A DNA stretch of 64,000 nt from an uncultured Dehalococcoidales bacterium (GCA_964386535.1 CAYLRY010000008.1:6579-70578); one strand, 5' to 3'; positions 15,471 to 34,183 are shown, numbered from the stretch's first letter. Numbers and translations are program-made. Notes: a model not told the origin generated them from the sequence alone.

Positions 15471-15769
15471 GCGGATTAATGATCATCCCGGTATCTTTGG
15501 AGGATAAAGAAAACCTTAATCCACTAATTGGAAAATCGTAAATATTTGGCGAAAACCAATTGTTTTTTCCCGCTGATCTTTCTGGTCTGTAATCCTGTTG
15601 AAAAACGGAAAATTAAAAACCACCCCTCACGGAAATTAGCTGATAAATGAATTAAAAAAGCCATGTAATGATTAAGAAATGAACGTTTTATGAGCTGTAA
15701 TTTGCACGTTGTTGCTCGTTATTTTTTTGAGGTATTATCTAGAATTCGCCCTTAACTTATGGTAAAGTA

Positions 15770-16369
15770 ATGCCAATGTTATCAGGAATTATTCCGATTA
15801 TTATTGCTTATTTGTTGGGTTCAATTCCGGTCGCTTATATTATTACCAGATTTCGTAAAGGTATAGATATCCGCGATGTTGGTGTACGCAATATGGGTGG
15901 CGCCAATGTTTTCCGGGAAGTGGGCAAGTGGGAAGGGGTGTTAACCTTAATACTTGATATAGGAAAGGGTGCCCTGGGCGTATTGATTGCGGGGTTTATG
16001 GGAGCATCTTTGCCCTGGATAATGGCAGCCGGTTTTGCGGGCATGCTTGGTCATAATTATCCGGTGTTTATAGGTTTCAGGGGAGGCAAAGGAATAGCTG
16101 TCATAACCGGCATTTTTTTTGTCATTTCGCCACCGGCAATGGCCAGCTCCGGTGCAATAATCGGCATTGCTATTATTTTCACCCACAATGTCTTTGTGGC
16201 TATTGAAATAGCCTCACCCTTTTTCCTTTTTTTTGTTTGGCTTTGGGAAGGAATAGGAACCTTGTTCTTTTTTACCGTAGCTGTAGTCGCTTTTCAGTTA
16301 TTCAGAAGCCGTGGCCGTTTAAAAGAAATTAAGACGCTTACCAGCAGGTTTACAAGAGCTGTTAAATAA
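15770..16369 (+). CDS. plsY: Glycerol-3-phosphate acyltransferase PlsY
   Basis: 199 aa. Motifs are AYLLGSIPVAYII, GVRNMGGANVFR and HNYPVFIGFRGGKGIAV. Confidence 0.9.
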   Translation: MPMLSGIIPIIIAYLLGSIPVAYIITRFRKGIDIRDVGVRNMGGANVFREVGKWEGVLTLILDIGKGALGVLIAGFMGASLPWIMAAGFAGMLGHNYPVFIGFRGGKGIAVITGIFFVISPPAMASSGAIIGIAIIFTHNVFVAIEIASPFFLFFVWLWEGIGTLFFFTVAVVAFQLFRSRGRLKEIKTLTSRFTRAVK

Positions 16370-16463
16370 TTTTCGGTTTGGGACATCAGGCAGGTGATAC
16401 CGGGGGATTCAGCCACGGCTTATATGATAAATAGCCTTTAAACAATCTCGTTGATAGTAAAAC

Positions 16464-17810
16464 ATGAACAGGAGTGAGGTATTTTTGAAATCCGGTGGTA
16501 AGCTAAAAAAGGAATTTAATCTTATCACTCTGGTAGCAGCCATGATTGGTTTGAATATCGGCGGGTCGCTATTTGTACTGACAGCCATGTCTGCCGGTCT
16601 AACTGGGCCCTCATTATTTTTCGCTCAAATAGTATCGGGATTACCTGTTTTACTGGCATTAATCCCTTACTCAATGTTGACCTCAGCCATCCCCACCAAT
16701 TGTGGCAATTACCAGTACGCCAAGCTGTTTTCACGCCCTCTGGCTGTTGCTAGCTGGTGGGGGCTTTTTGCCGCAATTCCCCTTGGTGCCTTGCCTCTGT
16801 TTGCCCTTGCCACCGCTAAACTTCTAATTGTATTGTTTCCAGGTCTTCCTTTAACCGGAACAGCCATCTTGGTGATAACTGTATTTTTTATTATCAATAT
16901 GATTGGTATAAAGACAGCCGCCTATATCCAGGCTGCTGGAGTGGCCATTTTGATTATTGCCCTGGGAGTCTTTGTGGTAAAGGGATTACCCGCGATCAAT
17001 GCACAAAATCTGACGCCTCTGTTTACCGGTGGTATAACGGGCTTTATAGGAGCAGCAGCGCTCCTTTATACGCTGCTGGCTGGCGGCTTATTTGGCATTG
17101 AAATGGGCGATGAAGTGAAAAATGCCCGCTCAACCATTCCCAAAGCTCTGATTATTAGCATTCTTGTCGTATTAATTATATATCTGCTGATTGAAATAGT
17201 ATCGGTAGCAGTTGTCAATTATAACACGCTGTCAAAAGGGGGTACCCTGGGTACAGCAGCGGAAGCCTTTTTATCAGATGATTTGTTGGCCTTTTTTGTG
17301 GTTGGAGGTGGTATCCTGGCCTCTACAACAACTATTAATCTGACGATGACCGCTTCAGGACGGTATGCTCTAGCACTGTCTGAGGACGGTCTTTTTCCCC
17401 AGTTTTTCAGCAGAATCAGCAGAAGATTTGGAACACCGCACTGGGGACTCACTCTGGCTTATGTTCTTTCAATAATATCACTGGTGGCTAACCCGTCATT
17501 GCAAACGTTGGCAGCTATGTTGAATTTTGGTTTAATCTTTATAGTTACGCTGGTTTTACTGGCAGCCTTCAGAGTGCCCAAAACACATCCTGAAATTTTC
17601 CAAAAGGCCAGATATAAGTTCAATAAGATTACCATCTCCATTGCCTCACTGACGGCTGTTGCCATAAACATGGTATTAGGGGTTATCCTGGCGGTGGCAG
17701 TGCCCAATGCTTTTCTGATTTTCATGGGCTTCGTGATTTTTGGGGTTGCCTTTTATTTTGTTAGAAAGAGAATGGGAGTGACTCCCTCACTAGTCTCTTC
17801 CAAAGAATAA
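16464..17810 (+). CDS. APC-superfamily amino acid permease
   Basis: 448 aa with ~12 TM helices and an APC-like pattern (GLNIGGSLFVL, GIEMGDEVKNARSTIPKALI). The true start may be the TTG 7 codons downstream. Confidence 0.8.
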   Translation: MNRSEVFLKSGGKLKKEFNLITLVAAMIGLNIGGSLFVLTAMSAGLTGPSLFFAQIVSGLPVLLALIPYSMLTSAIPTNCGNYQYAKLFSRPLAVASWWGLFAAIPLGALPLFALATAKLLIVLFPGLPLTGTAILVITVFFIINMIGIKTAAYIQAAGVAILIIALGVFVVKGLPAINAQNLTPLFTGGITGFIGAAALLYTLLAGGLFGIEMGDEVKNARSTIPKALIISILVVLIIYLLIEIVSVAVVNYNTLSKGGTLGTAAEAFLSDDLLAFFVVGGGILASTTTINLTMTASGRYALALSEDGLFPQFFSRISRRFGTPHWGLTLAYVLSIISLVANPSLQTLAAMLNFGLIFIVTLVLLAAFRVPKTHPEIFQKARYKFNKITISIASLTAVAINMVLGVILAVAVPNAFLIFMGFVIFGVAFYFVRKRMGVTPSLVSSKE

Positions 17811-19019: not shown

Positions 19020-21716
19020 TTGATTTCGGAACAATTACTGAAAACTAAGTTGACCATCCCTGTAGGAAGACAGATGGTAGTAGCCAGATCACGTTTGATC
19101 GAGCGTTTGAACACCGGAATTGAAGGAAAGCTTATACTTATTTCTGCTCCTGCCGGATTTGGAAAAACCACCCTGGTAACAACCTGGATTGCCGGTATCG
19201 AACGTAAGGTTGCCTGGTTATCTCTGGATGAAGGAGACAATGACTCAGCCCTATGGTTTGAATACTTAATTGCGGCCTTACGAGAAATCAAACCTAAAAT
19301 TGGCGCCAGTGCTTTAAGGCTATTCCGATCATCTCAGGAGCCTACTCTGGCTAAAAATGTTCTCACCGATCTGATCAATGAAGTCTGCTCCGTGCCTTTT
19401 CATTTTATGCTGGTTCTGGATGATTATCATGTAATCAAGAACAAAGATATCCATAACGCAATGGACTTTTTACTTGAAAATTTGCCTCAAAACATGCATC
19501 TGGTAATCTTAACGCGTTCTGATCCTCCTTTCCACCTCTCTTACCTAAGAGGCAGGGCGCAATTGACGGAGTTACGGGCGGTTGATTTACGATTCACCAC
19601 TCAGGAGGTTGGGGATTTCCTTAACCGTGTGATGAATCTTAATCTCAGTCAGGAAGAAGTCGCCTCATTAGATGCCCGCAGTGAAGGCTGGATTGCAGGG
19701 CTGCAAATGGCTGCAATTTCCCTGAAAGGACGCACTGATACTGCCCAATTTATTGCAGCCTTCAGCGGCAGCAACCGTAATATTATGGACTATCTCTTTG
19801 AAGAAGTCTTTGACCGTCAGCCTGAGGATGTTCAATCCTTTTTGCTTCAGACATCTATTTTAGAGCAGTTGACAGGCCCCCTGTGTGATGCTGTCACCGG
19901 TAGAAACAACAGTCAAGCTATTCTGGAAACTATGAAAAAAGCTAATCTTTTTATTTTATCTCTGGATGATGATGGACGCTGGTACCGTTACCATCCACTT
20001 TTTGCAGATCTATTATTCCATAGCTTGAAAAATTCTCAACCCTCGTCTATACATGTTCTTTATGAAAGAGCCAGTTTATGGTATGAGCAAAACGGGCTGG
20101 CTGTACCGGCGATAGAACATGCTATTTTAGGCCAAAATTTTAACCTGGCTGCCAGTCTTATTATACGGCATGCTGAGACCACTTTGATGCATGGTGAGCT
20201 GGCCACCTTAAGAAGATGGATCCGTTCTCTACCGGTTGAAAGCATAAACTCAAATCCCATTCTGCTTATTTTTCAGGTTCTGGCGGATCTCTGGCTTCAT
20301 GAAGGTCTTTTAATAAGGGAAGAGAACTGGTTACAGAGGGCAGAAGAATTAGATCCACAAAAACAGCAAATTGGCCCCCTCCTGGCGGTCAGAGCTGTCT
20401 TATCAGCCGCTCAGGGTCAAACATTTCGAAGTGTTGATCTGGCTCATCAGGCGCTTGAAGTTTTACCTCCCGAAAGCACTTTCTGGAGGTCCGTGGTGAT
20501 TCCCTGTTTGGGACAATTCAGCCTGTTAAGAGCTGAATTACCGGCTATTCCTGTGGCTGTTAATCTATATAACGAAGCTGTCAATATGGGTATAAAAACA
20601 GCCAGTCTTTTTACAACAGTTTTAGCCCTCCGCCGTTTGGCAGAGACACATATCGCGGCAGGGCATTTACGCGAAGCACAAAAGTGCTACCAAAGAATTA
20701 TCGATTTGGCTGTAGACAGCCAGGGCAAACTGCTTCCCCTGGCCAGTTTCGGCTTTATGGGTTTGGGCAGCCTGGAGCGCGAATGGCATAATTTGGATAA
20801 GGCTGTCACATTGCTGGATCAGGGTATTCGTCTGGCCAGCGGGAAACTGGGATCATGGCAGTTAGAAGGCTTTATTAATCTAGCGCGTGTCAGGGCTATG
20901 CAAGGTAATACCTCTGAAGCCGCTCAATTGATCCGAAATGCCTGGCAGCTAACCTCTGAATCTCCAGATAGTAAACAATTCGAAATATTTGTGGTTGTCC
21001 ATGAGGTTCTTCTATCTCTAAGACGGGGTGACCTTACGATGCCGGCTGGATGGGCCAGAGAGCGGAGTCAAAAGTCCGTATCTGAACTGGGCCATGTTTC
21101 TGATCGAAAATCAGTAGCAGGTTATTATTCATCAGAATTAGAGCAGATAACCCTGGCCAGGGTTTATCTTGCACAGGGAATCCCAGCAGAAGCGCTGAAA
21201 ACTCTGGAAATAGTGTCTGAATCGGCAAAAAAGCTAGAACGTAACGGTGTACTGATTGAAATTCAAACGTTAGAAGCGCTTGCTTATAAAGCTCTGGGCA
21301 ACACTGATAAAGCTTTAAGGTTACTCCAGAATTCCCTTTCAACGGCTGAAAGTGAAGGTTATTTCAGTCTCTATATCGAAGAAGGGCTCCCTATGGCCAG
21401 GCTTTTATATGAAGCTTCTCAGCAAAAAATTAAACCAGAGTATGTTCACCGTCTGTTAGAAACTATACATAATATAAATATCGAATCAGAGCAACCAGGC
21501 AAGGTTTCCAGAATCCTGGAACCTTTGAGTGATAGAGAACTGAAAGTACTGGAATTGCTGTCCCGGGGGTTATCCAATAAAGAAATTGCAGAACTGTTAT
21601 GTATTGAATTGCGCACAGTGAAATGGCATACTGGCAATATATTTGGGAAACTTAATGTAAAAAATCGAACGGAGGCCGTGGTCAGAGCCAGGGAACTGAA
21701 TGTACTATCTTCCTGA
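19020..21716 (+). CDS. MalT-like LuxR-family transcriptional regulator (STAND ATPase + TPR-like + LuxR HTH)
   Basis: 898 aa with a TTG start. N-terminus is LLKTKLTIP, P-loop is ISAPAGFGKTTL, and the C-terminal HTH is LSDRELKVLELLSRGLSNKEIAELLCIELRTVKWHTGNIFGKLNV. Confidence 0.9.
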   Translation: MISEQLLKTKLTIPVGRQMVVARSRLIERLNTGIEGKLILISAPAGFGKTTLVTTWIAGIERKVAWLSLDEGDNDSALWFEYLIAALREIKPKIGASALRLFRSSQEPTLAKNVLTDLINEVCSVPFHFMLVLDDYHVIKNKDIHNAMDFLLENLPQNMHLVILTRSDPPFHLSYLRGRAQLTELRAVDLRFTTQEVGDFLNRVMNLNLSQEEVASLDARSEGWIAGLQMAAISLKGRTDTAQFIAAFSGSNRNIMDYLFEEVFDRQPEDVQSFLLQTSILEQLTGPLCDAVTGRNNSQAILETMKKANLFILSLDDDGRWYRYHPLFADLLFHSLKNSQPSSIHVLYERASLWYEQNGLAVPAIEHAILGQNFNLAASLIIRHAETTLMHGELATLRRWIRSLPVESINSNPILLIFQVLADLWLHEGLLIREENWLQRAEELDPQKQQIGPLLAVRAVLSAAQGQTFRSVDLAHQALEVLPPESTFWRSVVIPCLGQFSLLRAELPAIPVAVNLYNEAVNMGIKTASLFTTVLALRRLAETHIAAGHLREAQKCYQRIIDLAVDSQGKLLPLASFGFMGLGSLEREWHNLDKAVTLLDQGIRLASGKLGSWQLEGFINLARVRAMQGNTSEAAQLIRNAWQLTSESPDSKQFEIFVVVHEVLLSLRRGDLTMPAGWARERSQKSVSELGHVSDRKSVAGYYSSELEQITLARVYLAQGIPAEALKTLEIVSESAKKLERNGVLIEIQTLEALAYKALGNTDKALRLLQNSLSTAESEGYFSLYIEEGLPMARLLYEASQQKIKPEYVHRLLETIHNINIESEQPGKVSRILEPLSDRELKVLELLSRGLSNKEIAELLCIELRTVKWHTGNIFGKLNVKNRTEAVVRARELNVLSS

Positions 21717-21873: not shown

Positions 21874-22395
21874 ATGGCAGAGTCGAAATATGAAAAATAC
21901 ATAACCCGGAAAGCGGCGGTTTTGACACGGATTGATGATCAGGGGGTTGTCAGATTTGAGGTTCCTCCAACACCTGGCATCCCTCTAAAAAATAAGGACA
22001 ACACCGGACCCCGAATGATCTTCTCCAACGATGTAGTTAAAGAAGCTACCACTAAAATAGAATACGGATTTATTTTAAAAGATACCGTATTGCTTAATAA
22101 TAGTCAGAATTATGGTGCGCATAGGCATGATTATCCCGAGATTTTCCTTTTCCTGGGTAGCGATCCAAATAATACCAATTATTTGGGTGCTGAGGGAGAA
22201 TTCTGGCTGGGTGAAGGAGATGAACTGGAAAAAGTCAGGCTGGATACTTCCTGTAGCGTTTACATACCACCTAATCTAGCTCATTTTCCTTTGTTTTTCA
22301 GAAACGTTAAAACTATGGTTATAATGGGAGTTGTGATTCCCAGAGTGGGTGATCTGATACCAGTGCCCATACCCAGACCCAGAGTAAACCCATAG
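21874..22395 (+). CDS. Cupin-like protein of unknown function (paralog of 58742-59188)
   Basis: 173 aa with an AAGGAGG SD. It shares HxHDxxxIxxFxGxxPxN...AExE...GEE...VYIPxxxxHxPL with the 58742 product. Confidence 0.6.
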   Translation: MAESKYEKYITRKAAVLTRIDDQGVVRFEVPPTPGIPLKNKDNTGPRMIFSNDVVKEATTKIEYGFILKDTVLLNNSQNYGAHRHDYPEIFLFLGSDPNNTNYLGAEGEFWLGEGDELEKVRLDTSCSVYIPPNLAHFPLFFRNVKTMVIMGVVIPRVGDLIPVPIPRPRVNP

Positions 22396-22637: not shown

Positions 22638-23465
22638 TTGCGAGTGAAAAAAATGATACATTTCCGCCTGTTGATGGTCTGTGTTCTGTTGTCTATCCCT
22701 GGTTTCTTAATGGCAGGTTGCAGTCAAATCAACCGGGAGCCGTTAACACTGGATAACCTGGCGGGTAAAAGAATTGGAGTGATGTGCGGCTACAGCACAG
22801 ACTACATTCTTTCTAAGGACAAATATAAAATAAACATTTACAGATATGATTATTATGCTGACATGCAACTGGCCCTCAGGTTTAACCGTCTGGATGCAGC
22901 CGCCATGGAAAATGATGAAGCCTATGTATTTTGCCGGATTGAGCCCAAATTTAAAATCGGTCTTACTCTTGATTCACACTTAGAGTTCGGTTATCCATTC
23001 AATGCCGATAAGATTGAGTTTCTGGAACTTTTTAACAATTTCGCCAGAGAATTTCAGCAAACAGAAGAATATGCGGATATTGTCAGACGGGTTGAGGAGT
23101 CTGCCCAAATCCCGTATCAACCTAAGAAGGTCACTAACGTGGTGACTACAGACAGGGTATTAAAGGTGGCGGCTTTTGACGGCTGGGAGCCGGTATCCTA
23201 CATCAATACCGAAACCAATGAATGGGAGGGGTCTGATGTAGAAATGCTGACTTACTTTGCCAACAGCATAGGAGCTAAATTGGAGCTAAGTATTAAGAGC
23301 TACAACCAGATGCTGATAGAGCTTGGCAGTGGACTTCTTGATTTTATCATCTGCCCCGAGACCATGTTATATAAAAAAGATATGGAAATGAGTAAAAATA
23401 TAACCATGTCCAATGGCGTCTTTTATAAGGATATTGTTCTGATTGTTAATAGTGAGGAGCCATAA
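22638..23465 (+). CDS. Amino-acid ABC transporter substrate-binding lipoprotein (family 3)
   Basis: 275 aa with lipobox LMAGC and an SBP_bac_3-like sequence. The start is TTG 22638 or ATG 22653. The stop overlaps the permease start (TAATG). Confidence 0.75.
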   Translation: MRVKKMIHFRLLMVCVLLSIPGFLMAGCSQINREPLTLDNLAGKRIGVMCGYSTDYILSKDKYKINIYRYDYYADMQLALRFNRLDAAAMENDEAYVFCRIEPKFKIGLTLDSHLEFGYPFNADKIEFLELFNNFAREFQQTEEYADIVRRVEESAQIPYQPKKVTNVVTTDRVLKVAAFDGWEPVSYINTETNEWEGSDVEMLTYFANSIGAKLELSIKSYNQMLIELGSGLLDFIICPETMLYKKDMEMSKNITMSNGVFYKDIVLIVNSEEP

Positions 23466-24184
23466 TGGAAGAATTAATTCAGACTATAAAAAATTCAATC
23501 TATATTAACCTCATTTATGAGGATAGATATTGGTTCATCCTTAAAGGTTTCGGTATGACGCTATACTTGACTGTTACGACATTTTTACTGGGTACCGTTA
23601 TAGGGGCGATATTCTGTAGATTGCGGCTTATCAGGAATCCTGCTATAACAACGGTCGTAATCTGGCTTAAAAACCTCTTTATTCGCCTGCCTACCCTGGT
23701 ACTGCTGATAATTTTTGCATACTGGCTTTTTGCCAATACAGGTATTGACACTGTCCCTCTGGCAATATTAGCCTTTGCTCTGAAAGCAGGCTCTTATATC
23801 AGCGATATCATGTACAGTGCTGTTATTACAGTAAATAAGGGAGAAGTGGAAGCAGGACGGACCCTCGGTATGTCCACATTTACAGTTTTTCGCCTGGTGG
23901 TTCTGCCTCAAGCTATTAAAAACGCTTTACCGGTTTATAAAAACCAGTTGATCATCACAATGCAGGAAACCTCGCTGGTGGGATTCTTAGCCATTAATGA
24001 TCTGACACGTGCCAGCCAGGTTATTACTAGCCGGACTATGGATCCTTACATCTCTATCATCATTACAGTAATAGCCTATTTATTAATCGGTGGTGTCTCT
24101 GGACTATTATTCAGGGTGGTAGAAAGAGACCGGCATTTGGAATATGCCGCACTTAAAAAACAGGAAAAGGCTAAAGCAATATGA
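23465..24184 (+). CDS. Amino-acid ABC transporter permease (His/Glu/Gln/Arg/opine family)
   Basis: 239 aa. EAA loop is EAGRTLGMSTFTVFRLVVLPQAIKNALPVYKNQLI. It overlaps the ATPase gene by 4 nt. Confidence 0.9.
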   Translation: MEELIQTIKNSIYINLIYEDRYWFILKGFGMTLYLTVTTFLLGTVIGAIFCRLRLIRNPAITTVVIWLKNLFIRLPTLVLLIIFAYWLFANTGIDTVPLAILAFALKAGSYISDIMYSAVITVNKGEVEAGRTLGMSTFTVFRLVVLPQAIKNALPVYKNQLIITMQETSLVGFLAINDLTRASQVITSRTMDPYISIIITVIAYLLIGGVSGLLFRVVERDRHLEYAALKKQEKAKAI

Positions 24185-25266
24185 TCTCGATAAAACACTT
24201 ATATAAAAGTTTCGGGAAAAATCTGATTTTAAAAGATATTTGTATTGACATCAATGACGGTGAGGTTGTGGCAATCATCGGCCCGTCAGGTTGCGGAAAA
24301 AGTACTTTAATCCGCTGTATAAATCTTCTGGAACAACCTGACTCCGGTCAAATCTTCATCGGAGGGGAAGAGATCACCCGCAAGGGTGCAGATATTAATA
24401 CAGTCCGCCGTAAACTGGGTATGGTATATCAATCTTTCAACTTATTTTCCCATCAGACGGCATTAGAAAACGTTATTCTTTCCCCCATACACGTCCTCAA
24501 ACTCCCCAGGGAACAGGCAATCAAGGAAGCTATGGGTTATCTGGAATTAGTAGGTATTGCCAACCGTGCGGACTTTTTACCAGACCAGCTATCAGGAGGG
24601 CAGAAGCAAAGAGTAGCCATTGCCCGCTGTCTGGCTATGCATCCAGAGGCCATCCTCTTCGATGAGCCTACATCTGCTCTGGACCCAACTATGGTAGATG
24701 AAGTATTGTCGGTCATCCGTAAGCTGGTAAAAAACGGTTTAACCTGTATAATTGTCACTCATGAAATGAATTTTGCACGGAAAATCGCAACCAGGGTACT
24801 TTACATGGACGATAAAATAATTTATGAAAGCGGCACACCCGAAGAAATATTCGACCATCCGCAAAAGGAGAAAACCAGAATATTTATCCACAAGCTGAAG
24901 GTGTTGACCATTGAAGCCGCACTTTCTGAAATGGATATGTATGATATCACCCGGCAGGTTTCTGATTATTGCTTTAAGTATGATATGAATCTGAGGGAAA
25001 CCAATATCATCAACCTGATCTGCGAGGAATACGTTACCAACCTCATGAAACGGCCTAAAGCCGGTGAATGGATCGCCTTATCTGTACGTTATAATGAACA
25101 AAACGGGTCTAAAGAACTGGTATTTCGGGATAATTTCCCGGCTGGGAATTTTTTTGAAAGTACGGATTTCGATAGTGTCAGTGCCAGGCTGATCAAAGGT
25201 TTTACGCGGTCCCTCGATTACCGCAGAGTTGATGATCAGAATATCGTAGAAATGCAATTGCTTTAG
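24181..25266 (+). CDS. Amino-acid ABC transporter ATP-binding protein with ~120-aa C-terminal extension
   Basis: 361 aa. Walker A is GPSGCGKST, signature LSGGQKQR, Walker B ILFDEPTSALD, H-loop VTHEM. The canonical core ends near aa 240, and residues 240-361 are extra. Confidence 0.9.
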   Translation: MISIKHLYKSFGKNLILKDICIDINDGEVVAIIGPSGCGKSTLIRCINLLEQPDSGQIFIGGEEITRKGADINTVRRKLGMVYQSFNLFSHQTALENVILSPIHVLKLPREQAIKEAMGYLELVGIANRADFLPDQLSGGQKQRVAIARCLAMHPEAILFDEPTSALDPTMVDEVLSVIRKLVKNGLTCIIVTHEMNFARKIATRVLYMDDKIIYESGTPEEIFDHPQKEKTRIFIHKLKVLTIEAALSEMDMYDITRQVSDYCFKYDMNLRETNIINLICEEYVTNLMKRPKAGEWIALSVRYNEQNGSKELVFRDNFPAGNFFESTDFDSVSARLIKGFTRSLDYRRVDDQNIVEMQLL

Positions 25267-25517
25267 TTAAACATCCTGACTGAACAACTATCGCTGTATT
25301 CTTTACATGGCCTGATTTTCATCGCTGCGCGCTCTGTCATAGCTTTTTTGAAGAGTCCCTTAACACACTTAATTAAGCCCGGCCCAAAAATCCAGATTCA
25401 AAACGGGAACCCATTAAAATAAATCTTTAAAGGAAATGTAATTGCAGCCCGTCCTCTAAAAAGATAAACTTATTAAGAACAATAAGACCGGAAGGTTCCG
25501 TTTTTGGAGTTAAACTG

Positions 25518-26822
25518 GTGAAGCTAAAATCTGAGCGTAAAAACAGTGTTCTCATAATAACCCCAGTAGGCAGGCTGGATGCTTTCGAGGCGATTGGACT
25601 GGGTAAAGATCTGGATAATCTCGTTATGGAAGATGATATATATCTAGTTCTGGACATGGCTAACGTACCTTATTTAAGCAGCGGCGGCATCAGAGTTCTT
25701 TTAGCTGTAAATAAAAAATTGTCCAGAAAGAAAGGACTGGTTTTTCTCTGCAGCCTGTGCGAGTATCCTGTCCAGGTGTTGAAAATGGCTGGTCTGGATA
25801 ACGTTTTTAATACTTGTGATTCTGTTGAGGCTGCCCTTTTTCAAATTTCTAACCTGAAAAGTATACAACGCCATCAAAAGGACCTGCAAAGTCTTCCCTG
25901 TTATAAAATCAAAGATATAAGTTTTCAGGTTTTTCATGCTAACGATAACAATGCAACTTTGAAAATTGTCGGCAGCCTGACGAAAGTGATGCATGCCACA
26001 CTTGAACCTGAAGACATCCGGCGGCGGCGTTTTTCTGAAACAGAATACTCCATCGGTCTGGGTGCTCTGGGAGGCGGCCTGGACGATTGTTTTCCTCTGC
26101 TGGGGGAAATGATGACCATAGGAGGAACAATGGTCTGGCTGCCAACTGATGGTAATGATACACCTGATTTTCTTATTCCCCAAAAAGATACGGGTGAGGT
26201 CATGATCCACACCGGCCTTAATATGGCCCTTGAAGGCCAGTTTAATGATATAATCCTGGTAGGCGCTGTTGAAGCCGGTTTGCCTATTACCCTTATTGAT
26301 TTTTACGAAGCTATCTTCCAAATTGCACGGGTACGGCAGATACCACACAGCAGCCTGGCCAGCGTAGCAATGGTATCCAATCTGGATGCACTGTTCAGCT
26401 CAGGGGTCAAGATATCACCCATTAATAAATTTACACCCACTAATCACGGTATGATCACTGATCCGGAAAATATAGGTCAGTGGATGGATGTTAACACTGA
26501 GCCCAAACATTGTGAACAGACTATGGTAAGTTTCGGGCTGGGTCTGGACTTAACTTTGGACCTTTCAGGTCTTTCAAAAGCCAGCCTGGATAATGTATTT
26601 TACCTGCATCCGGCCAATGTGGGCAGCAAAAAAATGCTTCTACATAATCATGGCGTGGTTTTTCATAACGTGCGGTGGCAGTATGTTCTGAATCTGGATG
26701 CTGAAATCAGGAGGATTGTCCGTGAGGGTGAGTTTGTGGATATGCGTCACCTTCTGGATACCACCCGGTTCACCCGGGCCATTGCCGGTGTTTCATATAT
26801 TTCAAACATAAGGTCCGAATAA
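25518..26822 (+). CDS. STAS (anti-sigma-factor-antagonist-like) domain fused to a ~320-aa unassigned domain
   Basis: 434 aa with a GTG start 8 nt after GGAG. The N-terminal ~110 aa fit the STAS/SpoIIAA pattern (VLIITPVGRLDAFEAIGLGKDLDNL...VLDMANVPYLSSGGIRVLL...LCSLCEYPVQVLKMAGLDNVF). The remainder is unrecognised. Confidence 0.75.
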   Translation: MKLKSERKNSVLIITPVGRLDAFEAIGLGKDLDNLVMEDDIYLVLDMANVPYLSSGGIRVLLAVNKKLSRKKGLVFLCSLCEYPVQVLKMAGLDNVFNTCDSVEAALFQISNLKSIQRHQKDLQSLPCYKIKDISFQVFHANDNNATLKIVGSLTKVMHATLEPEDIRRRRFSETEYSIGLGALGGGLDDCFPLLGEMMTIGGTMVWLPTDGNDTPDFLIPQKDTGEVMIHTGLNMALEGQFNDIILVGAVEAGLPITLIDFYEAIFQIARVRQIPHSSLASVAMVSNLDALFSSGVKISPINKFTPTNHGMITDPENIGQWMDVNTEPKHCEQTMVSFGLGLDLTLDLSGLSKASLDNVFYLHPANVGSKKMLLHNHGVVFHNVRWQYVLNLDAEIRRIVREGEFVDMRHLLDTTRFTRAIAGVSYISNIRSE

Positions 26823-26993: not shown

Positions 26994-27160
26994 TATACTA
27001 AAATTATATCGATGCTTCTACCTATAATATTCCCCCGTTTTTACCACCTTGCCGGCGTACAAATAAGTTCCTTTTCAGGTTCCGGAAACCTGTGGACATG
27101 GATGGTAGATACCGTATTCATTTAATAACTCGATGTGCAAGTGGAGGATCAGTCAGGGAA

Positions 27161-28291
27161 ATGGAAAAATTTCATGAAATACTAAAAAATCACCACCAGT
27201 ATGCCAGAGAATGGAAAAAGAAAACCGGAAGAAAAGTGCTGGGCTACTACGAACCCTATATGCCTGAGGAGGTAGCTTATGCTGCCGGTGTCCTGCCTGT
27301 CCGGCTTTTAAGTGAACATGAGCCTGATGATATTACCGACCATTTTATGTATGGTCAGTGCGCTTGTAGCCGTGATCTTTTAAACCAGTTTTCCAAAGGT
27401 AGGTTTGACTATATAGATGGCCATGTTTATGCTGAAGCCTGCCAGTGGATGCGTGGAGCCTTCCAGACGTGTGGTGCGTATATGCCGGAAGATACTTATC
27501 ATCATTATGTCTATACGCCTGATTATACCGACGGTCCCCGGTCTAAAAGCCTGATGCGTTCTGAAGTAGAATCATTCAAAAAATCCCTGGAGAAATGGAC
27601 CGGCCAAAAAATTACCAATCGTTTACTGGACCACTCAATCAACGTTTATAATACTAACCGCCGGCTGCTGCACCAGATCTATGAAATGCGCCGCCTGGAC
27701 AATCCTGTGGTTACCGGGACAGAAGCCATGGAAATGGTGCTGACCTCCCAGATCATGGACAAAGATGAACATAACAAACTGCTGCGTGAAGCTATCAAAG
27801 AGCTAAGACAGCGTAAACAGGTTAATAATAAGGGCATTCGCGTCATGTTGATCGGTAGCCCAACATCAGATGTAGAACTGGAAAAGCTGATAGAATCGCT
27901 GGGGGCAGTTGTAGTGATAGATGAATTATGCACCGGTGCAGGTTATTTCTGGAACGAAGTGGTACCTCTGGAAGACCGTTTGATGGCTATTTCACTCCGC
28001 TATCTAGGGAAACCACATTGCGCCTTAAAAGATAACAACTGGAGAAGGCGCCCGGCATTTATCCATCAACTGTACGAAGACTATAATGCTAAAGGTGTGA
28101 TTATCTCCAAGCAGATTTATTGCCATCCGCACGGGACGGATAATCCTGAACTCTGGAAGCAGTTTAGAGAGCACTATATGCCGTTTCACTATTTGGAAAG
28201 AGACACCACCAGCCCAGGGCGTGAAACGAAAGTACGCCTGGAAGCTTTCCTGAACATACTACAGGCTGACCCTGTCTTACAGGGCACTTAA
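27161..28291 (+). CDS. BcrC/BzdN/HgdB-family subunit (2-hydroxyacyl-CoA dehydratase / benzoyl-CoA reductase family, PF06050 type)
   Basis: ATG 27161 is preferred to the track start at 27092. MEKFHEILKNHHQYAREWKKKTGRKVLGYYEPYMPEEVAYAAGVLPVRLL is the typical N-terminus of this family. Conserved Cys residues are present (QCACS, EACQW, ELCTG). Confidence 0.8.
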   Translation: MEKFHEILKNHHQYAREWKKKTGRKVLGYYEPYMPEEVAYAAGVLPVRLLSEHEPDDITDHFMYGQCACSRDLLNQFSKGRFDYIDGHVYAEACQWMRGAFQTCGAYMPEDTYHHYVYTPDYTDGPRSKSLMRSEVESFKKSLEKWTGQKITNRLLDHSINVYNTNRRLLHQIYEMRRLDNPVVTGTEAMEMVLTSQIMDKDEHNKLLREAIKELRQRKQVNNKGIRVMLIGSPTSDVELEKLIESLGAVVVIDELCTGAGYFWNEVVPLEDRLMAISLRYLGKPHCALKDNNWRRRPAFIHQLYEDYNAKGVIISKQIYCHPHGTDNPELWKQFREHYMPFHYLERDTTSPGRETKVRLEAFLNILQADPVLQGT

Positions 28292-28394
28292 CCCCTGTTG
28301 ACTCAATCGGCTGAAATGCGAGTTAAAAAACGGAGAGTCATAGACTGTTGTTATTAGAGAAAAGACCGGGAAATTAATCGGGAGATGATACTAT

Positions 28395-29711
28395 ATGACA
28401 AAGGGACAAAGATGGGAAACCAGGCCGCTGGAAAGCTGGGCAAAAGCCAAAGATATGCGGGCCAGATTCGAAAAAGCAGTACGCACGGCCGGGCAGGAAA
28501 AAGTTCTGCTGGCCCAGGGTGGCACTACTTCTATCTGGGCTTTTGCCTTTCCCGCAATCCGCCTGGTGGAAGATAATCCGCTGGGCGCTATGATGGCGTT
28601 TCAGAGTGATAAATTTTCGCGGGAATGCCGTCTGGCCTGTGAGATCAGAGGATGGGGTAGGGAGATCTGCGGTTATCAGTTAAACTGCTGGGGCGCCCAG
28701 TACCTGGACCGTCAAATAGACGGTAGCAAGTTCCCGCTGAGGGATATGGTAATTCCCATGCCGCATCCGTGTGATTCTCATACCAAGAGAGGCCAGCTTC
28801 CCATGGATTACTCAAATATCCCCCGCTGGCAGAGCGATACACCGGTACACACAGATGAACCGGACCCTGTTAGAGAGCAGGAAATGATCGAGAACAAGGT
28901 GGGCTGTATTCTGGATGAAATCCAGGATGTGGAAAGGATCACCGGACAGAAATTTGACGATGAAAAATTTAAAGAAGCCCTTATCAACCAGTGGAAATAC
29001 CGGGAATATGCCGGAGAAGTCTGCTGCATGATTCAGCATGTGCCGGCTCCGCTGGGACAAAAGGAACTGTACTCTTTTTATACCCTGGGCAGCCTGACCA
29101 AGACCGATCCGGCTGAAACGGTGGAACTCTGGAAAATGTTGAGAGACGAGGTCAAATGGCGAACCGAAAATAATATTGCTGCGGTGGGCACAGAAAGGTA
29201 CAGATGGATCGAGCATCATCCACCTCCATGGCATTTTTTGAAATATTACCGCTATATGGAGCAATACGGCGCTGTTTGCATTGGATCACTGTACAGTCAT
29301 ATGATGGGCATTCCTTATGAAATCAACGAAAAAGGTGAATATGTATCCGCCAAAACACCCCTTCAATTAGGAGTACCTTTAGAGACCCGTGAACAATGCG
29401 TACGGGCACTGGTGGGTACCATTATGGGCGGTACCGGTCAGCAGTGGGATGATCTACTGGGCTGGCATCAAATCCGGAATATGGCTAAATATTTCAAGGT
29501 AGATGGAGCTGTCTTGGCACTATGGCGTAGCGGTATAGGCTGCACTTATTTAAGGAAAAAATGCGGTCTGGTTTTAAGTGAAATGGGCATACGTGTGATG
29601 CATTATGAAGGTTCGCAGCCAGGCGATCGTACGGATATGGATGAAAACCGCATGCTGGATCAATTAGATGTCTGGATGGAAACACAGGGATTGCGGAAGC
29701 TGGAGGAGTAA
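28395..29711 (+). CDS. BcrB/BzdO/HgdA-family subunit
   Basis: 438 aa. The N-terminus WETRPLESWAKAKDMRARFEKA, multiple Cys residues and the size match the beta subunit of class I benzoyl-CoA reductases and dehydratase alpha subunits. Confidence 0.8.
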   Translation: MTKGQRWETRPLESWAKAKDMRARFEKAVRTAGQEKVLLAQGGTTSIWAFAFPAIRLVEDNPLGAMMAFQSDKFSRECRLACEIRGWGREICGYQLNCWGAQYLDRQIDGSKFPLRDMVIPMPHPCDSHTKRGQLPMDYSNIPRWQSDTPVHTDEPDPVREQEMIENKVGCILDEIQDVERITGQKFDDEKFKEALINQWKYREYAGEVCCMIQHVPAPLGQKELYSFYTLGSLTKTDPAETVELWKMLRDEVKWRTENNIAAVGTERYRWIEHHPPPWHFLKYYRYMEQYGAVCIGSLYSHMMGIPYEINEKGEYVSAKTPLQLGVPLETREQCVRALVGTIMGGTGQQWDDLLGWHQIRNMAKYFKVDGAVLALWRSGIGCTYLRKKCGLVLSEMGIRVMHYEGSQPGDRTDMDENRMLDQLDVWMETQGLRKLEE

Positions 29712-29722
29712 AGGAGATTGAA

Positions 29723-30496
29723 ATGATAACCGCAGGCATAGATTTAGGGATAGAGAGCATCAAGGTGGTAATCCTGAAAGACGGACTTGTGATATCCCGC
29801 AGTATAGCTTCATCAGGCGGCGCGGATAGGAGGGAGAATGCAGAAAAAGCCTGGCAGGAGGCTCTTAAACCGGCCGGGCTTAGAGCAGAGGACGTCAGCA
29901 AAGTGGTGGCGACAGGTCAGGGCAAGTACGATGCTCGCTTTGCGGTTGAACAGGTGGTGGAGCCGGTGGCAGCAGCCAGAGCGGCCCGTTTTCTCTATCC
30001 TTCAGCCAGAGCTGTGGTAGATGCCGGTGCAGACCAGGTACGCGTAGTAATATTGGGGGCTTCCGGTAATATTACGGAAACGGTGCTGAACCAGAAATGC
30101 GCTGCTGGCATCGGCATTTTTTTACGCTCTATAGCCCGGAGGTTAGGCTTGTCCCTGGAAGATATGAGCAGGTTGGCAGGCAAAACTAAAAGCAGGGTTG
30201 TGGTCAATGATAGCTGCGCGGTTTTTGCCGAACTGGATGCTATTGCACTGGTACAGGATGAGATCCCTTTGCAAGACATAGCCCAGGCTATTCATGAGGC
30301 CATGGCAGTTAGAATCAACTCAGTCCTTAACGATAAAATCGTTCCGGATAAAAATAATACCGTCCTGGTCGGAGGTCTGGCCAGAAATAAGGGTATTGTT
30401 AAAGCATTGAAGAAATGTTCGAAGAACAATTTTTTGATTCCTGCTGATCCTGAATACGCTTGTGCGCTGGGAGCAGCGCTTATTGCCGCAGGATAG
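29723..30496 (+). CDS. BadF/BadG/BcrA/BcrD-type ATPase (activase/electron-activating subunit), copy 1
   Basis: 257 aa. The ASKHA N-terminus is ITAGIDLGIESIKVVIL. Cys126 (NQKCAAGIG) and Cys165 (NDSCAVFAE) are present. Confidence 0.85.
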   Translation: MITAGIDLGIESIKVVILKDGLVISRSIASSGGADRRENAEKAWQEALKPAGLRAEDVSKVVATGQGKYDARFAVEQVVEPVAAARAARFLYPSARAVVDAGADQVRVVILGASGNITETVLNQKCAAGIGIFLRSIARRLGLSLEDMSRLAGKTKSRVVVNDSCAVFAELDAIALVQDEIPLQDIAQAIHEAMAVRINSVLNDKIVPDKNNTVLVGGLARNKGIVKALKKCSKNNFLIPADPEYACALGAALIAAG

Positions 30497-30733
30497 AGAT
30501 GATACCAATATGTGATTTTAAGATAGGAGAGTAAAAAGACCGGACTGCTGGTTTGAATTAATGGCTGAACCTGATACCGGTGTCAGGCCAAAGATAAAAA
30601 ATTTATCCAGGCAAATGAGGTAAGTACGATAAATATGAGCAGCATTATTATCATTTATAGAAAATGATATTGAAAATTAGCTATTATTAGTAGTATTTAA
30701 TTAATATACCGGTTTCTGACAGGAGGTCTTACA

Positions 30734-31591
30734 ATGGCTCAAGAATACTGGAAATGGCCGGAGTCCAGGTGGGCATCCGGTGATATTGATTGGGAAAAGG
30801 CAAAAGTAATTACAGCCGGAGTGGACGCCGGTGCAGTCAGCTCCCAGGTTGTCATAATGTGTGACGGTGAAGTTTTTGCTTATTCTAACCTGCGTACCGG
30901 TCCAAGAAGCCGAGAAAATGCCAGGCGGGCCATGGACAGTGCTCTGGAAGGAACAGGGATGAAGCTTAATAATATTGACACTATCGTAGCTACCGGTTAT
31001 GGTAGTACAGGTGTATCCTTCGCTATGAAAGAGATTAACGAGACCATCTGTCATGCCCGGGGCGCCCGTTTCATGTTTGGTCCCCAGGTGAAGACTGTGT
31101 TTGATATGGGAGGACAGACCGCCAAGGCTATTAAACTCTACGGCTGGGACAGGATTGCTGATGTGGCTTTTAATGATAAATGCGCTGTGAGTATGGGATG
31201 GGGAATTGAAGTTCTGTCTGACCTTATGCATGTACCTGTGACAGAGATGGGGGAAAGGTCACTGGCTGTTAAGCAGGATCCAGAACCGGTGAGCACCACC
31301 TGCTATGTCTTCGCCAATACCGAAGCCGTCGGTATGCTCCGTTCAGGCCTTTCAGAGAATGAAGTGCTTGCTTCATACCTTTTTGCAATAGCCTGGCGTT
31401 TACAAGGTCTGCTGGGACGCATTAATCCGGAGAAGGAGTATGCTTTCACCGGCGGTATGGCCAAAAATCCAGGCATTGTGAAAAGGCTGGAAAGAGAAAT
31501 GGGCATTACCGCCCTGAGTTCCAAGTATGATCCACAGTTGGCCGGGGCGATTGGAGCTGCATTATTGGCTTCGGAAGTTAAACAATATTAG
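30734..31591 (+). CDS. BadF/BadG/BcrA/BcrD-type ATPase, copy 2 (distinct paralog)
   Basis: 285 aa. ITAGVDAGAVSSQVVIM; Cys150 (NDKCAVSMG) and Cys190 (STTCYVFAN). AGGAGG SD. Confidence 0.85.
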   Translation: MAQEYWKWPESRWASGDIDWEKAKVITAGVDAGAVSSQVVIMCDGEVFAYSNLRTGPRSRENARRAMDSALEGTGMKLNNIDTIVATGYGSTGVSFAMKEINETICHARGARFMFGPQVKTVFDMGGQTAKAIKLYGWDRIADVAFNDKCAVSMGWGIEVLSDLMHVPVTEMGERSLAVKQDPEPVSTTCYVFANTEAVGMLRSGLSENEVLASYLFAIAWRLQGLLGRINPEKEYAFTGGMAKNPGIVKRLEREMGITALSSKYDPQLAGAIGAALLASEVKQY

Positions 31592-31616
31592 AAAATTAAA
31601 ATTAAGGATCTGCGAA

Positions 31617-32882
31617 ATGATACGCTCCCCTGGTCAAAAGACTGTTACAGAGGGTATGCTGAGTCCGTACAGAGTCCTGGATCTGGCAGATGAAAAAGGG
31701 GTATTTTGCGGTAAAATCCTGAGTGATCTCGGCGCCGACGTGATTAAAATTGAAAGGCCCGGCGGGGATGCCATGCGCCGCCTGGGCCCTTTTTTTCATG
31801 ATAGTCCTCATCCTGAAAAGAGCCTCTTCTGGATGGCCTATAATACCAATAAACGTGGAATTACTCTTAATATTGAAACCTCTGACGGCCGGAAAATCCT
31901 CAAACAATTGGTGAAAACAGCGGATATCATAGTAGAGTCCTTTTCTCCGGGATATCTGGAGAAATTGGGACTGGGATACACGGACCTGGAAAAAATAAAC
32001 CCCTCGGTTATTCTGGTTTCCATCTCCCCTTTCGGGCCAACTGGGCCTTATAAGGACTATAAAGCTCCGGATATCGTGGCCTGGGCCATGGGTGGGGAGA
32101 TGGCTCCCTTCGGCGAAATAGACCGTCCGCCGATCCGGATTGGTTACCATTCACAGGCGTATCTCAACGCAGGCGCTGACGCTGCTATGGGGGCTTTACT
32201 GGCGCTTTTTTCTCGCTCGAATACGGGGGAAGGGCAGCAGGTTGACGTTTCGATCCAGGAATCAGTAGTACACTCTACTGAGCATATTACCTCCCGCTGG
32301 GATCTGCTGAAATTTCTTCAAAACCGGGTAAACGGAGCCGGCAATTATGGCCTTACCCTGACCAGAATCTGGCCCTGTAAGGACGGCTATGTCTCCTGGT
32401 TTTACTGGGAGGGTGTTATGTCTATCCCCACCAATGTTCCCCTGGTTAAATGGATGGAAAGTGAAGGTATGGCAGATGAGTTCATCCTGAAATATGATTG
32501 GAGCAAGTTCGGCCCTGAGACTACTCGGGAAGAACTCGACCATATTGAAGCTATTACAGCCAAATTTTTTCTAGCTCACACTAAAGCCCAGCTTTTTGAA
32601 GGTTCAGTAAAAAGAAATGTCCAGGTCTATCCTGTCTCTACAGCCTCAGACATGCTAAACGATCCTCAGCTCATCTCCAGAAAGTTCTGGGTAGAGGTGG
32701 AGCATCCAGAACTGGGTACATCAATTACCTTTCCCGGAGCTTTTGCCGCCACTATAGAGGCAACTCCCCAAATATCGCGCCGTGCGCCGCTTATTGGTGA
32801 ACACAATCAGGAAATTCTGGAAAAAGAACTGGGAATATCCCATGAACAAATATTGCTCTTAAAACAGGCAGGTGTGATTTAG
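31617..32882 (+). CDS. Family III CoA-transferase (CaiB/BaiF), copy 1
   Basis: ATG 31617 is preferred to the track start at 31527, which overlaps the upstream gene. YRVLDLADEKGVFCGKILSDLGADVIKIERPGGD is the family III signature region. Confidence 0.85.
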   Translation: MIRSPGQKTVTEGMLSPYRVLDLADEKGVFCGKILSDLGADVIKIERPGGDAMRRLGPFFHDSPHPEKSLFWMAYNTNKRGITLNIETSDGRKILKQLVKTADIIVESFSPGYLEKLGLGYTDLEKINPSVILVSISPFGPTGPYKDYKAPDIVAWAMGGEMAPFGEIDRPPIRIGYHSQAYLNAGADAAMGALLALFSRSNTGEGQQVDVSIQESVVHSTEHITSRWDLLKFLQNRVNGAGNYGLTLTRIWPCKDGYVSWFYWEGVMSIPTNVPLVKWMESEGMADEFILKYDWSKFGPETTREELDHIEAITAKFFLAHTKAQLFEGSVKRNVQVYPVSTASDMLNDPQLISRKFWVEVEHPELGTSITFPGAFAATIEATPQISRRAPLIGEHNQEILEKELGISHEQILLLKQAGVI

Positions 32883-32901
32883 CCCGTTAAGGAAGGAAGC
32901 T

Positions 32902-34086
32902 ATGCCTCCAAAATTATTAGAGGGTATAAAGGTAGTGGATTTTACCTGGCATCTCACGGGTCCTTTGACCACCAAGTTTTTATCCGATTGCGGGGCTGAA
33001 GTAATACATGTGGAGAGCCGGAAAAGGCCAGATATTCAGCGAGTTAACGATAGTAAAGGCAGTTTTAACCAGTATCATACCGGAAAGCTGGGCATCACTC
33101 TTAACCTGTCCATGCCTGCCGGACTGGAACTGGCCAAACGTTTGATTGCCCGCGCGGATGTGGTGGTGGAAAATTTCTCCGGCGGGGCGATGGAAAGAAT
33201 GGGGCTGGGATACGAAGTGCTTAAAAAAATAAAGCCTGATATTATCATGCTAAGTTCATGTATGCAGGGGCAAACCGGACCCCATGCCAGGCTTCCGGGG
33301 TCAGGGCATAAATTAACAGCCCTGTCAGGATTCAGCACCATTACCGGCTGGCCTGATCGCCTGCCGGGAAATATTTTGGCCTATACCGATTTTATCGGCC
33401 CCCGTTTTAATGTAATCGCCATCCTGGCTGCCCTGGAATACCGGCGGCGTACCAGCAGAGGACAATACCTGGATATGTCACAATACGAAAACGCCATTCA
33501 TTTCATGACGCCTCTGATACTGGATTATGTGGTAAATAAAAGACTAGCCGGACGACAGGGAAACCGGTGCGATTATGCCGCCCCTCATAATGCATATAAA
33601 TGCCAGGGAGATGACCGCTGGTGTGTCATTGCTGTTTTTACAGATGAGGAGTGGCAGAGCTTATGCCAGGTGATCGGTAATCCTTCCTGGACTAAAGATC
33701 CGAAATTTGCTACTCTCCTGGGAAGGAAGCAAAATGAAGATGAACTTGACCGCCTTCTGGGAGAATGGACGATTTCCCGCTCCGCTGAAGAAGTAATGTC
33801 TTTAATGCAGGCCAGAGGCGTAGCCGCAGGTATAGTAGCTACTGGAGAAGACCTGATGGAGCGAGACCTCCAGCTTAAACACCGGCAGACATTCGTTAAG
33901 CTTGAGCACCCTGTAATAGGGGAATATCGCACCCAGACCGGACTGCATTGCACTTTATCCAAAACCAAAATTGATTTGAAACGCGCCCCTTTGCTGGGAG
34001 AGCATAATGAATATGTTTTTAAAGAAATTCTGGGTTTGCCGGATGAAGAATATAATAGCCTGGTAAATGGTGGGATTATCAACTGA
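32902..34086 (+). CDS. Family III CoA-transferase (CaiB/BaiF), copy 2
   Basis: 394 aa. LEGIKVVDFTWHLTGPLTTKFLSDCGAEVIHVES, with APLLGEHNE near the C-terminus. Confidence 0.85.
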   Translation: MPPKLLEGIKVVDFTWHLTGPLTTKFLSDCGAEVIHVESRKRPDIQRVNDSKGSFNQYHTGKLGITLNLSMPAGLELAKRLIARADVVVENFSGGAMERMGLGYEVLKKIKPDIIMLSSCMQGQTGPHARLPGSGHKLTALSGFSTITGWPDRLPGNILAYTDFIGPRFNVIAILAALEYRRRTSRGQYLDMSQYENAIHFMTPLILDYVVNKRLAGRQGNRCDYAAPHNAYKCQGDDRWCVIAVFTDEEWQSLCQVIGNPSWTKDPKFATLLGRKQNEDELDRLLGEWTISRSAEEVMSLMQARGVAAGIVATGEDLMERDLQLKHRQTFVKLEHPVIGEYRTQTGLHCTLSKTKIDLKRAPLLGEHNEYVFKEILGLPDEEYNSLVNGGIIN

Positions 34087-34183
34087 CATTGCTGTAACAT
34101 TATCTTCATTTTTCTTTTCTAGCCTCTATCTTAGATGCTAAATTCGCCCGTACAGCAAAAAAGCAAGGAGGGTATAGATTACC

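Follow-up and report, generated by a model that had tools for sequence, protein, structure and literature searches.

A putative RsbW-derived pseudokinase domain on the ATPase of an amino acid ABC importer, encoded beside a STAS-fusion protein in an uncultured Dehalococcoidales bacterium

In a stretch of 64,000 nucleotides from an uncultured Dehalococcoidales bacterium (GCA_964386535.1 CAYLRY010000008.1:6579-70578; one strand, 5' to 3'; hereafter the window), the ATPase gene of an amino acid ABC importer continues for 122 codons beyond the end of its nucleotide-binding domain (NBD). The additional domain very probably descends from the GHKL anti-sigma serine kinases of the RsbW/SpoIIAB class, and the loss of its ATP-binding motifs points to a likely pseudokinase. 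The gene that follows encodes a STAS domain of the anti-sigma-antagonist type, fused to a long C-terminal part. An original prediction, made from the sequence alone, had taken these two genes for a candidate partner-switching module on the importer, with a suggested regulatory link to a downstream radical-enzyme cluster. We find such a module plausible, and its connection to this particular STAS fusion and to the radical-enzyme cluster weak.

Results

The ATPase is encoded by a single unbroken open reading frame (ORF) of 361 amino acids (24181-25266, + strand). Pfam ABC_tran (PF00005, E 7.5e-36) spans residues 17-165, and residues 1-239 align with the entire 240-residue chain of the ArtP-type structure 4yms_J (E 4.5e-83), which stops at the 'FIHKL' position of the ATPase. 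The domain so delimited (24181-24897) is complete, with Walker A, Walker B and signature motifs, and is encoded in one operon with a permease (BPD_transp_1) and a binding protein (SBP_bac_3); its best NCBIfam matches are TcyN, GlnQ and EhuA, all under their equivalog cutoffs. This is an ordinary ABC nucleotide-binding domain of the polar amino acid (PAAT; ArtP/GlnQ/TcyN) type. As the 4yms_J alignment stops at residue 239, residues 240-361 (nucleotides 24898-25266, stop codon included) are extra, in agreement with the early estimate of an NBD ending near residue 240. The strings quoted in the original prediction (LICEEYVTNLMK, IALSVRY, LVFRDNF and IVEMQLL) are all found in the translation.

The extension joins the last NBD helix directly, with no linker. 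Orthologs extended to the same length are present in "Candidatus Formimonas warabiya" (locus L007, 360 amino acids) and on a metagenome contig (L009, 362 amino acids), and the fusion is therefore real rather than an assembly artefact. The Formimonas protein is publicly annotated as a plain amino acid ABC transporter ATP-binding protein. In a 63%-identical relative (L003), a TAG stop, in frame and in the place of a conserved Phe (1350-1360), separates the NBD from the extension, which is therefore called as a gene of its own with 115 amino acids; a sequencing error and a pseudogene are both possible.

Searched alone, the extension had no match in Pfam, NCBIfam or PDB sequences, and a profile of its family returned only noise from PDB sequences. 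Its fold was settled by AlphaFold2 (AF2) modeling with Foldseek, by hhalign and by family-wide Pfam scans. The AF2 model, built on a 10-sequence alignment, has a predicted local distance difference test score (pLDDT) of 90.1 and a predicted template modeling score (pTM) of 0.83, and its topology, beta-alpha-alpha-beta-beta-alpha-beta-beta, follows the order of the Bergerat alpha/beta sandwich. When this model was compared to the PDB with Foldseek, ranks 1-22 were all anti-sigma kinases (SpoIIAB, UsfX, RsbW, SiaB and the RsbW domain of Rv1364c), with E values from 4e-6, template modeling (TM) scores of 0.55-0.71 and a probability of 1.00; several of these structures were solved in complex with a STAS partner. 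Ordinary histidine kinase ATP-binding domains make up the ranks that follow. TOBE, NIL, ACT and CBS domains, the folds familiar from ABC C-terminal domains, are absent from the 50 best Foldseek matches and have no Pfam match to the extension. The outcome that would have told against the original prediction at this point, a model resembling an ABC C-domain unrelated to GHKL, thus did not arise.

Profile comparison adds evidence of homology to this likeness of fold. A 13-sequence family of extensions aligned by hhalign with a genuine HATPase_c_2 protein, the 135-amino-acid RsbW-like kinase of locus L006 (PF13581 at E 1.4e-21), over 105 columns at 95.9% probability and E 5.5e-9. Eight of the 13 family members have weak matches to PF13581 (HATPase_c_2) and three to HATPase_c. 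These matches cover most of the 127 positions of PF13581, namely, 8-125 in L009 (E 4.4e-5), 12-125 in L010 (1.9e-5) and 8-125 in Formimonas (1.2e-3). None reaches the threshold of 27.4 bits, with 12.0 bits for the window extension (E 0.21) and 19.3-25.1 bits for its relatives. The by-eye alignment to SpoIIAB and RsbW that underlay the original prediction was thus correct, with support from model, structure search and profiles alike. The extension profile is much nearer to the L006 kinase than to the RsbW-like domain of L019 (hhalign 11.5%), a pattern consistent with its having arisen when a neighboring partner-switching kinase gene was duplicated.

Members of the family are few. Among 5.8 billion clusters, a word-indexed search recovered one relative of the extension, and 10 with a profile; exhaustive phmmer over 1.84 billion representatives found 11 clusters at E <= 1e-3, nearly all of them C-terminal pieces of polar amino acid ABC ATPases with the NBD end still attached. 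Wherever sequence upstream of the extension is preserved, without exception, it belongs to such an ATPase. Locus searches with single or narrow extension queries yielded 2 + 2 loci, including a spurious genome match (L008, 8651-10936) that is a radical-SAM protein with an intein and a LAGLIDADG endonuclease.

Alignment through the L006 protein locates what the extension has lost. Opposite 'TNINTPLQDKT' and 'GGLG' of that kinase, at the site of the ATP lid and G2 box that RsbW and SpoIIAB both possess, the extension has a deletion of ~11 residues. In the window, the G1 motif DxGxG is replaced by RDNFPAG and the G2 glycines (GxxGxG) are missing (a lack of obvious G1/G2 glycines had been noticed at the outset); the degenerate G1 region, the GN-x-x-E motif and the site of the lid deletion together occupy 25126-25173. 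The equivalent of the N-box helix, NLRETNIINLICEEYVTNLMKR (24988-25053), aligns with 'LILDELVTNTIQ' of the L006 kinase and 'VVSEAVTNAIIH' of SpoIIAB. Two clades differ in what they retain. That of the window keeps the N-box E-x-x-x-N (EEYVTN) and lacks the G1/G2 glycines, whereas the second clade (L004, L006, L009 and L010; ~25% identical to the window) keeps one G1 and one G2 glycine and has lost the N-box Asn (N of VTN), which is thus confined to the window's clade. Such complementary loss speaks against ATP binding as the function that has been conserved.

Conservation throughout the family falls on acidic and polar residues: the E-E pair of the N-box helix, Y-x-E where beta-2 ends, G-N-x-x-E following beta-3 and an Asp that opens helix 3. 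Only one residue, extension position E48 (the second Glu of CEEY), stays invariant when two genuine RsbW-like domains are aligned with the extension family. Placed by homology, these residues would surround a vestigial nucleotide pocket. Because the ATP lid and the G1/G2 boxes are lost, as is the N-box Asn outside the window's clade, the extension is probably catalytically dead, with phosphorylation no longer possible. We do not count it as a functional anti-sigma kinase, since it lacks the defining ATP-binding motifs and scores under the Pfam threshold.

The next gene (25518-26822, + strand) encodes 434 amino acids and begins with a STAS domain (residues 1-110, 25518-25847). PF01740 matches residues 5-106 (E 3.8e-16), and TIGR00377 scores 54.9 bits, over its cutoff of 53.45. 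Residues ~110-434 match no curated family in Pfam or NCBIfam, so the gene is, as first described, an N-terminal STAS domain followed by ~320 residues without assignment. In profile comparison, the STAS domain matches TM1442 (E 1.6e-14), SpoIIAA (8.5e-14) and other anti-sigma antagonists, including RsfB and RsbV, down to 1e-9, against E values of 0.04-1 for SulP STAS domains and MlaB. Its structure gives Foldseek TM scores of 0.8-0.9 to SpoIIAA and RsbV. S55 (nucleotides 25680-25682) aligns with the phospho-serine of TM1442 and is invariant in 42 sequences. The domain is of the SpoIIAA/RsbV anti-sigma-antagonist type, with the phosphorylatable serine position retained.

The C-terminal part of this protein (25848-26822) retrieves at least 973 proteins, almost all of ~434 amino acids and with the same STAS plus C-terminal architecture, at identities of 48-82%; their sources are Dehalococcoidia/Chloroflexota and methanogenic archaea. 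AF2 modeled the full-length protein with a pLDDT of 73.7, and residues 152-234 hold about half of the invariant columns, yet have AF2 confidence below 50. Leaving STAS structures aside, the model is closest in fold to alpha-acetolactate decarboxylases (ALDCs; 5yho, 6j3d, 6j92 and 4bt2) and the zinc protein PTD012 (1xcr), with E values of ~5e-5 to 1e-3 over 206-229 aligned columns. Both ALDC and PTD012/C11orf54 use a three-His zinc site, and three His residues (H376, H378 and H411) are invariant in the window protein's family. The resemblance has limits: TM scores by target are only 0.36-0.51, the sequence profile PF03306 (ALDC) matches none of 42 family members, the spacing of the His residues is different, and the conserved segment of ~80 residues is unmodeled. 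We tentatively regard the C terminus as an ALDC-like, possibly zinc-dependent enzyme domain predicted from its model. Weak matches to PP2C in 15 of the 42 members are local and sub-threshold (best E 9.1e-5, residues 363-427), and a PP2C reading was rejected, as no PP2C structure is among the 50 best fold matches. We found no description of a STAS-acetolactate decarboxylase fusion in the literature, and the large, strongly conserved and uncharacterized STAS-enzyme family of Dehalococcoidia and methanogens deserves attention in its own right.

To ask how often the two kinds of gene meet, we compared six other extension loci with flanking genes and seven other distinct STAS-fusion contexts. Two extension loci have STAS genes close by. 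In L004, the extension-ATPase is followed by a solute-binding protein (SBP) gene and then a gene for a 100-amino-acid STAS protein; in L006, the genes that come after it are, in order, those for an SBP, the genuine RsbW-like kinase, a STAS protein and, in convergent orientation, a SpoIIE phosphatase, and no sigma factor was found on the 7-kb contig. From the other side, a STAS fusion 75% identical to that of the window (L019) lies 72 bp downstream of a gene (5182-6660) for a 492-amino-acid protein, in which a genuine N-terminal HATPase_c_2 domain (E 2.7e-15) is fused to a GNAT acetyltransferase. With the window included, an RsbW-like domain lies upstream in 2 of 8 distinct STAS-fusion contexts, and a STAS gene is a neighbor at 3 of the 7 informative extension loci. 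The association recurs at the level of domains and from both sides; the specific pair of genes is not conserved.

We scanned every ORF in ~230 kb of non-redundant flanking sequence with hidden Markov models (HMMs). STAS and RsbW-like domains turned up in the query genes and in immediate neighbors of the reciprocal domain, and nowhere else. This absence of background makes pure coincidence unlikely. A rough estimate of chance gives P ~1e-3 for 3 of 7 loci, or ~1e-2 if L004 and L006 are one event, where the frequencies are assumed rather than measured (1% of genes encoding STAS, three downstream positions).

Some features of the compared loci are of separate interest. The L006 contig is apparently a long-read assembly with several frameshifts; its partner-switching set (2818-4295 and the rest of the minus strand) lies directly after the extension-bearing operon, the STAS gene of this set is frameshifted, and fragments of NMT1 and PDC sensor domains lie near the SpoIIE gene. 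At L015-L018, a plain GNAT gene of 168 amino acids holds the position upstream of the STAS fusion. In the second clade of extension loci, the permease is fused to at least three tandem SBP domains (L004 1-2082, 693 amino acids; L009 6304-9297, 997 amino acids), and further free SBP genes accompany the ATPase gene.

Discussion

From the fold, the homology, the loss of motifs and the gene neighborhoods observed, we infer a binding event, a direction of control and an effect on transport along the following lines. The extension would be a pseudokinase receptor that keeps the ancestral docking of STAS, at the face around its vestigial nucleotide pocket. Positioned under the NBD dimer, like the regulatory domains of MalK and MetN, it would bring the transporter into a partner-switching circuit as one of the binding partners. 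Unphosphorylated STAS protein would dock and thereby change ATPase or transport activity, or would itself be held at the membrane, and phosphorylated STAS protein would be repelled. STAS docking may be the function of the extension family, although our confidence falls somewhat short of an even chance; that the two genes of the window are putative partners of each other is a possibility we rate lower, as doubtful.

At loci of the L006 type, whether the small STAS protein is phosphorylated would depend on a sensor phosphatase and a real kinase, and the transporter would be the obvious output, as no sigma factor is at hand. In the window, the adjacent STAS-enzyme fusion would be the candidate ligand, recruited to or regulated by the transporter; given that no kinase or phosphatase is encoded within the 64 kb, docking there would be constitutive or controlled from elsewhere. 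It is conceivable, if rather speculative, that the importer is the output or sensor of a complete circuit, in which the dead RsbW-like receptor competes with real RsbW for unphosphorylated STAS protein and SpoIIE switches import post-translationally, with the receptor of the window bringing a STAS-tagged enzyme to the transporter's mouth.

Several observations weigh against STAS docking. The window's specific gene pair occurs in none of the 13 other contexts (six extension loci and seven STAS-fusion contexts). The syntenic SBP-permease-ATPase operon on the Formimonas chromosome, whose ATPase is the closest ortholog (61% identity in the extension), has no STAS gene within 10 kb, and there is no STAS neighbor in L005, in L009 (within 10 kb on either side, on a 63-kb contig) or in L010; the L003 sequence ends 190 nt past the gene. 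The STAS-fusion family is usually monocistronic with varying neighbors and has never been seen elsewhere beside an extended ATPase: the gene stands alone in the methanogens L002 and L014, precedes an HGD-D gene in L001, where there is no ABC transporter, and has no extended ATPase near it at L011-13, L015-18, L020 or on the P0003 contig. Because L004 and L006 belong to one clade, the three positive loci amount to two or three independent events, and few loci could be sampled in all, a limit on the statistics that follows from the rarity of the family. A spacer of 251 bp separates the two genes in the window. No kinase and no PP2C/SpoIIE phosphatase for the STAS domain was found in the 64 kb by phmmer, jackhmmer or HMM scans. 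Finally, the ATP lid is said, from the work on 1TH8, to be among the STAS contacts of SpoIIAB and RsbW, and it is this lid that is deleted in the extension.

Some of these observations, among them the spacer and the deleted lid, also favor a view of the extension as an autonomous regulatory or dimerization domain, which would keep the two NBDs together in the manner of the SpoIIAB dimer, or as a pocket for a small ligand (trans-inhibition as in MetN and ModC); it would have no STAS partner, and the STAS gene would then be an independent neighbor or part of the CoA-reductase cluster downstream. We consider this a real possibility, and at this locus nearly as likely as STAS docking. Four of the seven extension loci, the closest ortholog included, have no nearby STAS gene; the STAS-fusion family is large and mostly alone; and the conserved polar residues of the pocket would fit ligand binding equally well. 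The HGD-D gene that follows the STAS fusion in L001, as one does in the window, could be taken to attach that gene to the enzymes rather than to the importer, but the two HGD-D proteins are only 25% identical. Also opposed to an autonomous domain are the STAS, RsbW and SpoIIE genes adjoining two distant extension operons, the genuine RsbW-domain gene directly upstream of a close relative of the STAS fusion (L019), and the lack of background STAS or RsbW-like genes in the ~230 kb of flanks, with its rough P of ~1e-3 to 1e-2.

A less probable explanation, to which we give small weight, is that the extension of the idle transporter sequesters a transcription factor, as anti-sigma factors do with sigma, the candidates being either the MalT-like regulator encoded at 19020-21716 or a sigma factor, and that transport or STAS binding frees it to turn on the catabolic cluster. 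The fold is that of proteins that mainly bind a transcription factor, a STAND/LuxR regulator of the MalT kind is encoded immediately upstream of the operon, and MalK-MalT provides a precedent (cited in PMC7367683). MalT, however, binds a TOBE-type rather than a GHKL domain; a MalT-like gene is near no other extension locus; and a SigB/SigF-type sigma factor was found near no locus, the only sigma gene being one of the extracytoplasmic function type 5.5 kb away in L009. Least probable, and very much so, is a still-active serine kinase that phosphorylates S55 of the neighboring STAS domain with ATP in a minimal pocket: the N-box E-x-x-x-N kept in the window's clade, the retained phospho-acceptor serine and the lid that is also short in the genuine HATPase_c_2 domain of L019 speak for it, against which stand the missing G1 DxGxG and G2 glycines, a lid shorter by 11 residues, the absence of the N-box Asn from the other clade and PF13581 scores under the gathering threshold.

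Returning to the putative partner-switching module, we can now separate its parts. The RsbW-like fold of the extension and the SpoIIAA-type STAS domain with S55 uphold the proposal; the gene pair is not conserved, and no kinase or PP2C phosphatase to complete the circuit was found in the window. Co-occurrence of the extended ATPase with the STAS fusion, on which the proposal also leaned, is not seen elsewhere for the specific pair and recurs for the domains, in L004, L006 and L019. A regulatory connection with the radical-enzyme cluster, as first suggested, is not supported by comparison: an HGD-D neighbor of the STAS fusion was seen in one other genome, where at 25% identity it is not an ortholog, and in the remaining contexts HGD-D genes are lacking, so a conserved link between the fusion and a benzoyl-CoA reductase-like cluster was rejected.

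The systems most like that of the window are the kinases SpoIIAB, RsbW and UsfX with their STAS antagonists SpoIIAA, RsbV and RsfB. The extension shares with these kinases its fold, its order of strands and helices, detectable homology and the N-box Glu, and the neighboring gene likewise encodes a STAS domain of the SpoIIAA type that keeps the phospho-serine position. The kinases are free proteins of ~140 amino acids, whereas the extension is fused to the C terminus of an ABC NBD, has neither ATP lid nor G1/G2 boxes, falls below the Pfam threshold and lies in a 64-kb window with no sigma factor, kinase or PP2C gene.

The nearest functional precedent for a STAS protein acting on an ABC ATPase is MlaF-MlaB of the lipid transporter MlaFEDB. 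MlaB binds MlaF through its phospho-site face and controls the stability and activity of the ATPase, and the phosphomimetic change T52E weakens this binding (PMC7367683). In that pair, the STAS protein makes contact directly with the NBD and a GHKL domain is absent from MlaF, whereas the ATPase of the window would offer a dedicated RsbW-like dock for putative STAS binding.

In its position after the NBD, the extension is comparable to the C-terminal regulatory domains of other ABC importers, such as those of MalK (TOBE-like, binding EIIAGlc and MalT), MetN (an NIL/ACT-like C2 domain), ModC (TOBE) and OpuA (CBS). The expected logic would be the same, that of a dimeric platform gating the ATPase or reporting the state of transport, and the folds are unrelated. 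To our knowledge, post-translational control of bacterial ABC importers involves few regulatory-domain folds (TOBE, NIL/ACT and CBS) and few partners (EIIAGlc and MlaB). A pseudokinase domain of GHKL descent attached to an NBD would thus be a new fold among the regulatory domains of ABC importers, and we found no description in the literature of an ABC ATPase with an anti-sigma, GHKL or HATPase_c_2 domain.

Partner switching with an output other than a sigma factor is known from SiaABCD, HsbR-HsbA and HenR of Anabaena, systems in which STAS controls an enzyme or machine; SiaB is itself among the structural matches of the extension. All4160 of Anabaena, an N-terminal STAS-glycosyltransferase fusion regulated by STAS phosphorylation (bioRxiv 10.64898/2026.04.08.717354), resembles the window protein in joining an N-terminal STAS domain to an enzyme domain. 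None of these systems has a transporter as output or a pseudokinase as receptor domain. If the proposed docking is true, partner switching, so far a matter of sigma factors and a few enzymes, would extend to a transporter. The system lends itself to testing, with a domain of 122 residues, a defined candidate STAS partner and, in L006, a locus for comparison that includes kinase and phosphatase.

Other genes in the window

The importer operon is ordered SBP, permease, ATPase. The SBP gene (22638-23465, + strand, 275 amino acids) has an SBP_bac_3 match confined to the C-terminal lobe and an ortholog in Formimonas (L007 7756-8580, phmmer E 6e-116). The permease gene (23465-24184, + strand, 239 amino acids, BPD_transp_1) has orthologs in L007 and L003, and its stop is overlapped by 4 nt by the start of the ATPase gene. 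The intergenic spacer between ATPase and STAS-fusion genes (25267-25517) contains no promoter or terminator above background, no Rfam family and no stable structure (fold z-score 0.72). An alpha_tmRNA match within the STAS gene is due to chance (19.6 bits against 50). A search of a plasmid collection gave no match.

On the 5' side of the operon lies the gene for the MalT-like STAND/LuxR regulator (19020-21716, + strand; TPR_MalT at E 7.8e-60, GerE and AAA_16). Its place next to an ABC operon recalls MalK-MalT control, an arrangement not conserved at the other extension loci. It is followed by an ORF for 173 amino acids (21874-22395) with no Pfam match and a paralog at 58742-59188. A second ABC ATPase of the window (37963-39033, - strand, 356 amino acids), in an SBP_bac_11 operon, likewise has a long C-terminal tail, for which the only match is a sub-threshold one to GlcV_C_terminal (14.1 bits, cutoff 27.6 bits; E 0.066).

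Downstream of the STAS-fusion gene, Pfam identifies two HGD-D proteins, two BcrAD/BadFG-type ATPases and one family III CoA-transferase (27092-32882, + strand), which form a cluster like those of benzoyl-CoA reductase and 2-hydroxyacyl-CoA dehydratase. On its 3' side, within 27092-35503, are a second family III CoA-transferase and a URO-D-like protein, and upstream, at 14499-17810, are a BKACE enzyme and an amino acid permease. The two regions together look like a catabolic island for some organic acid.

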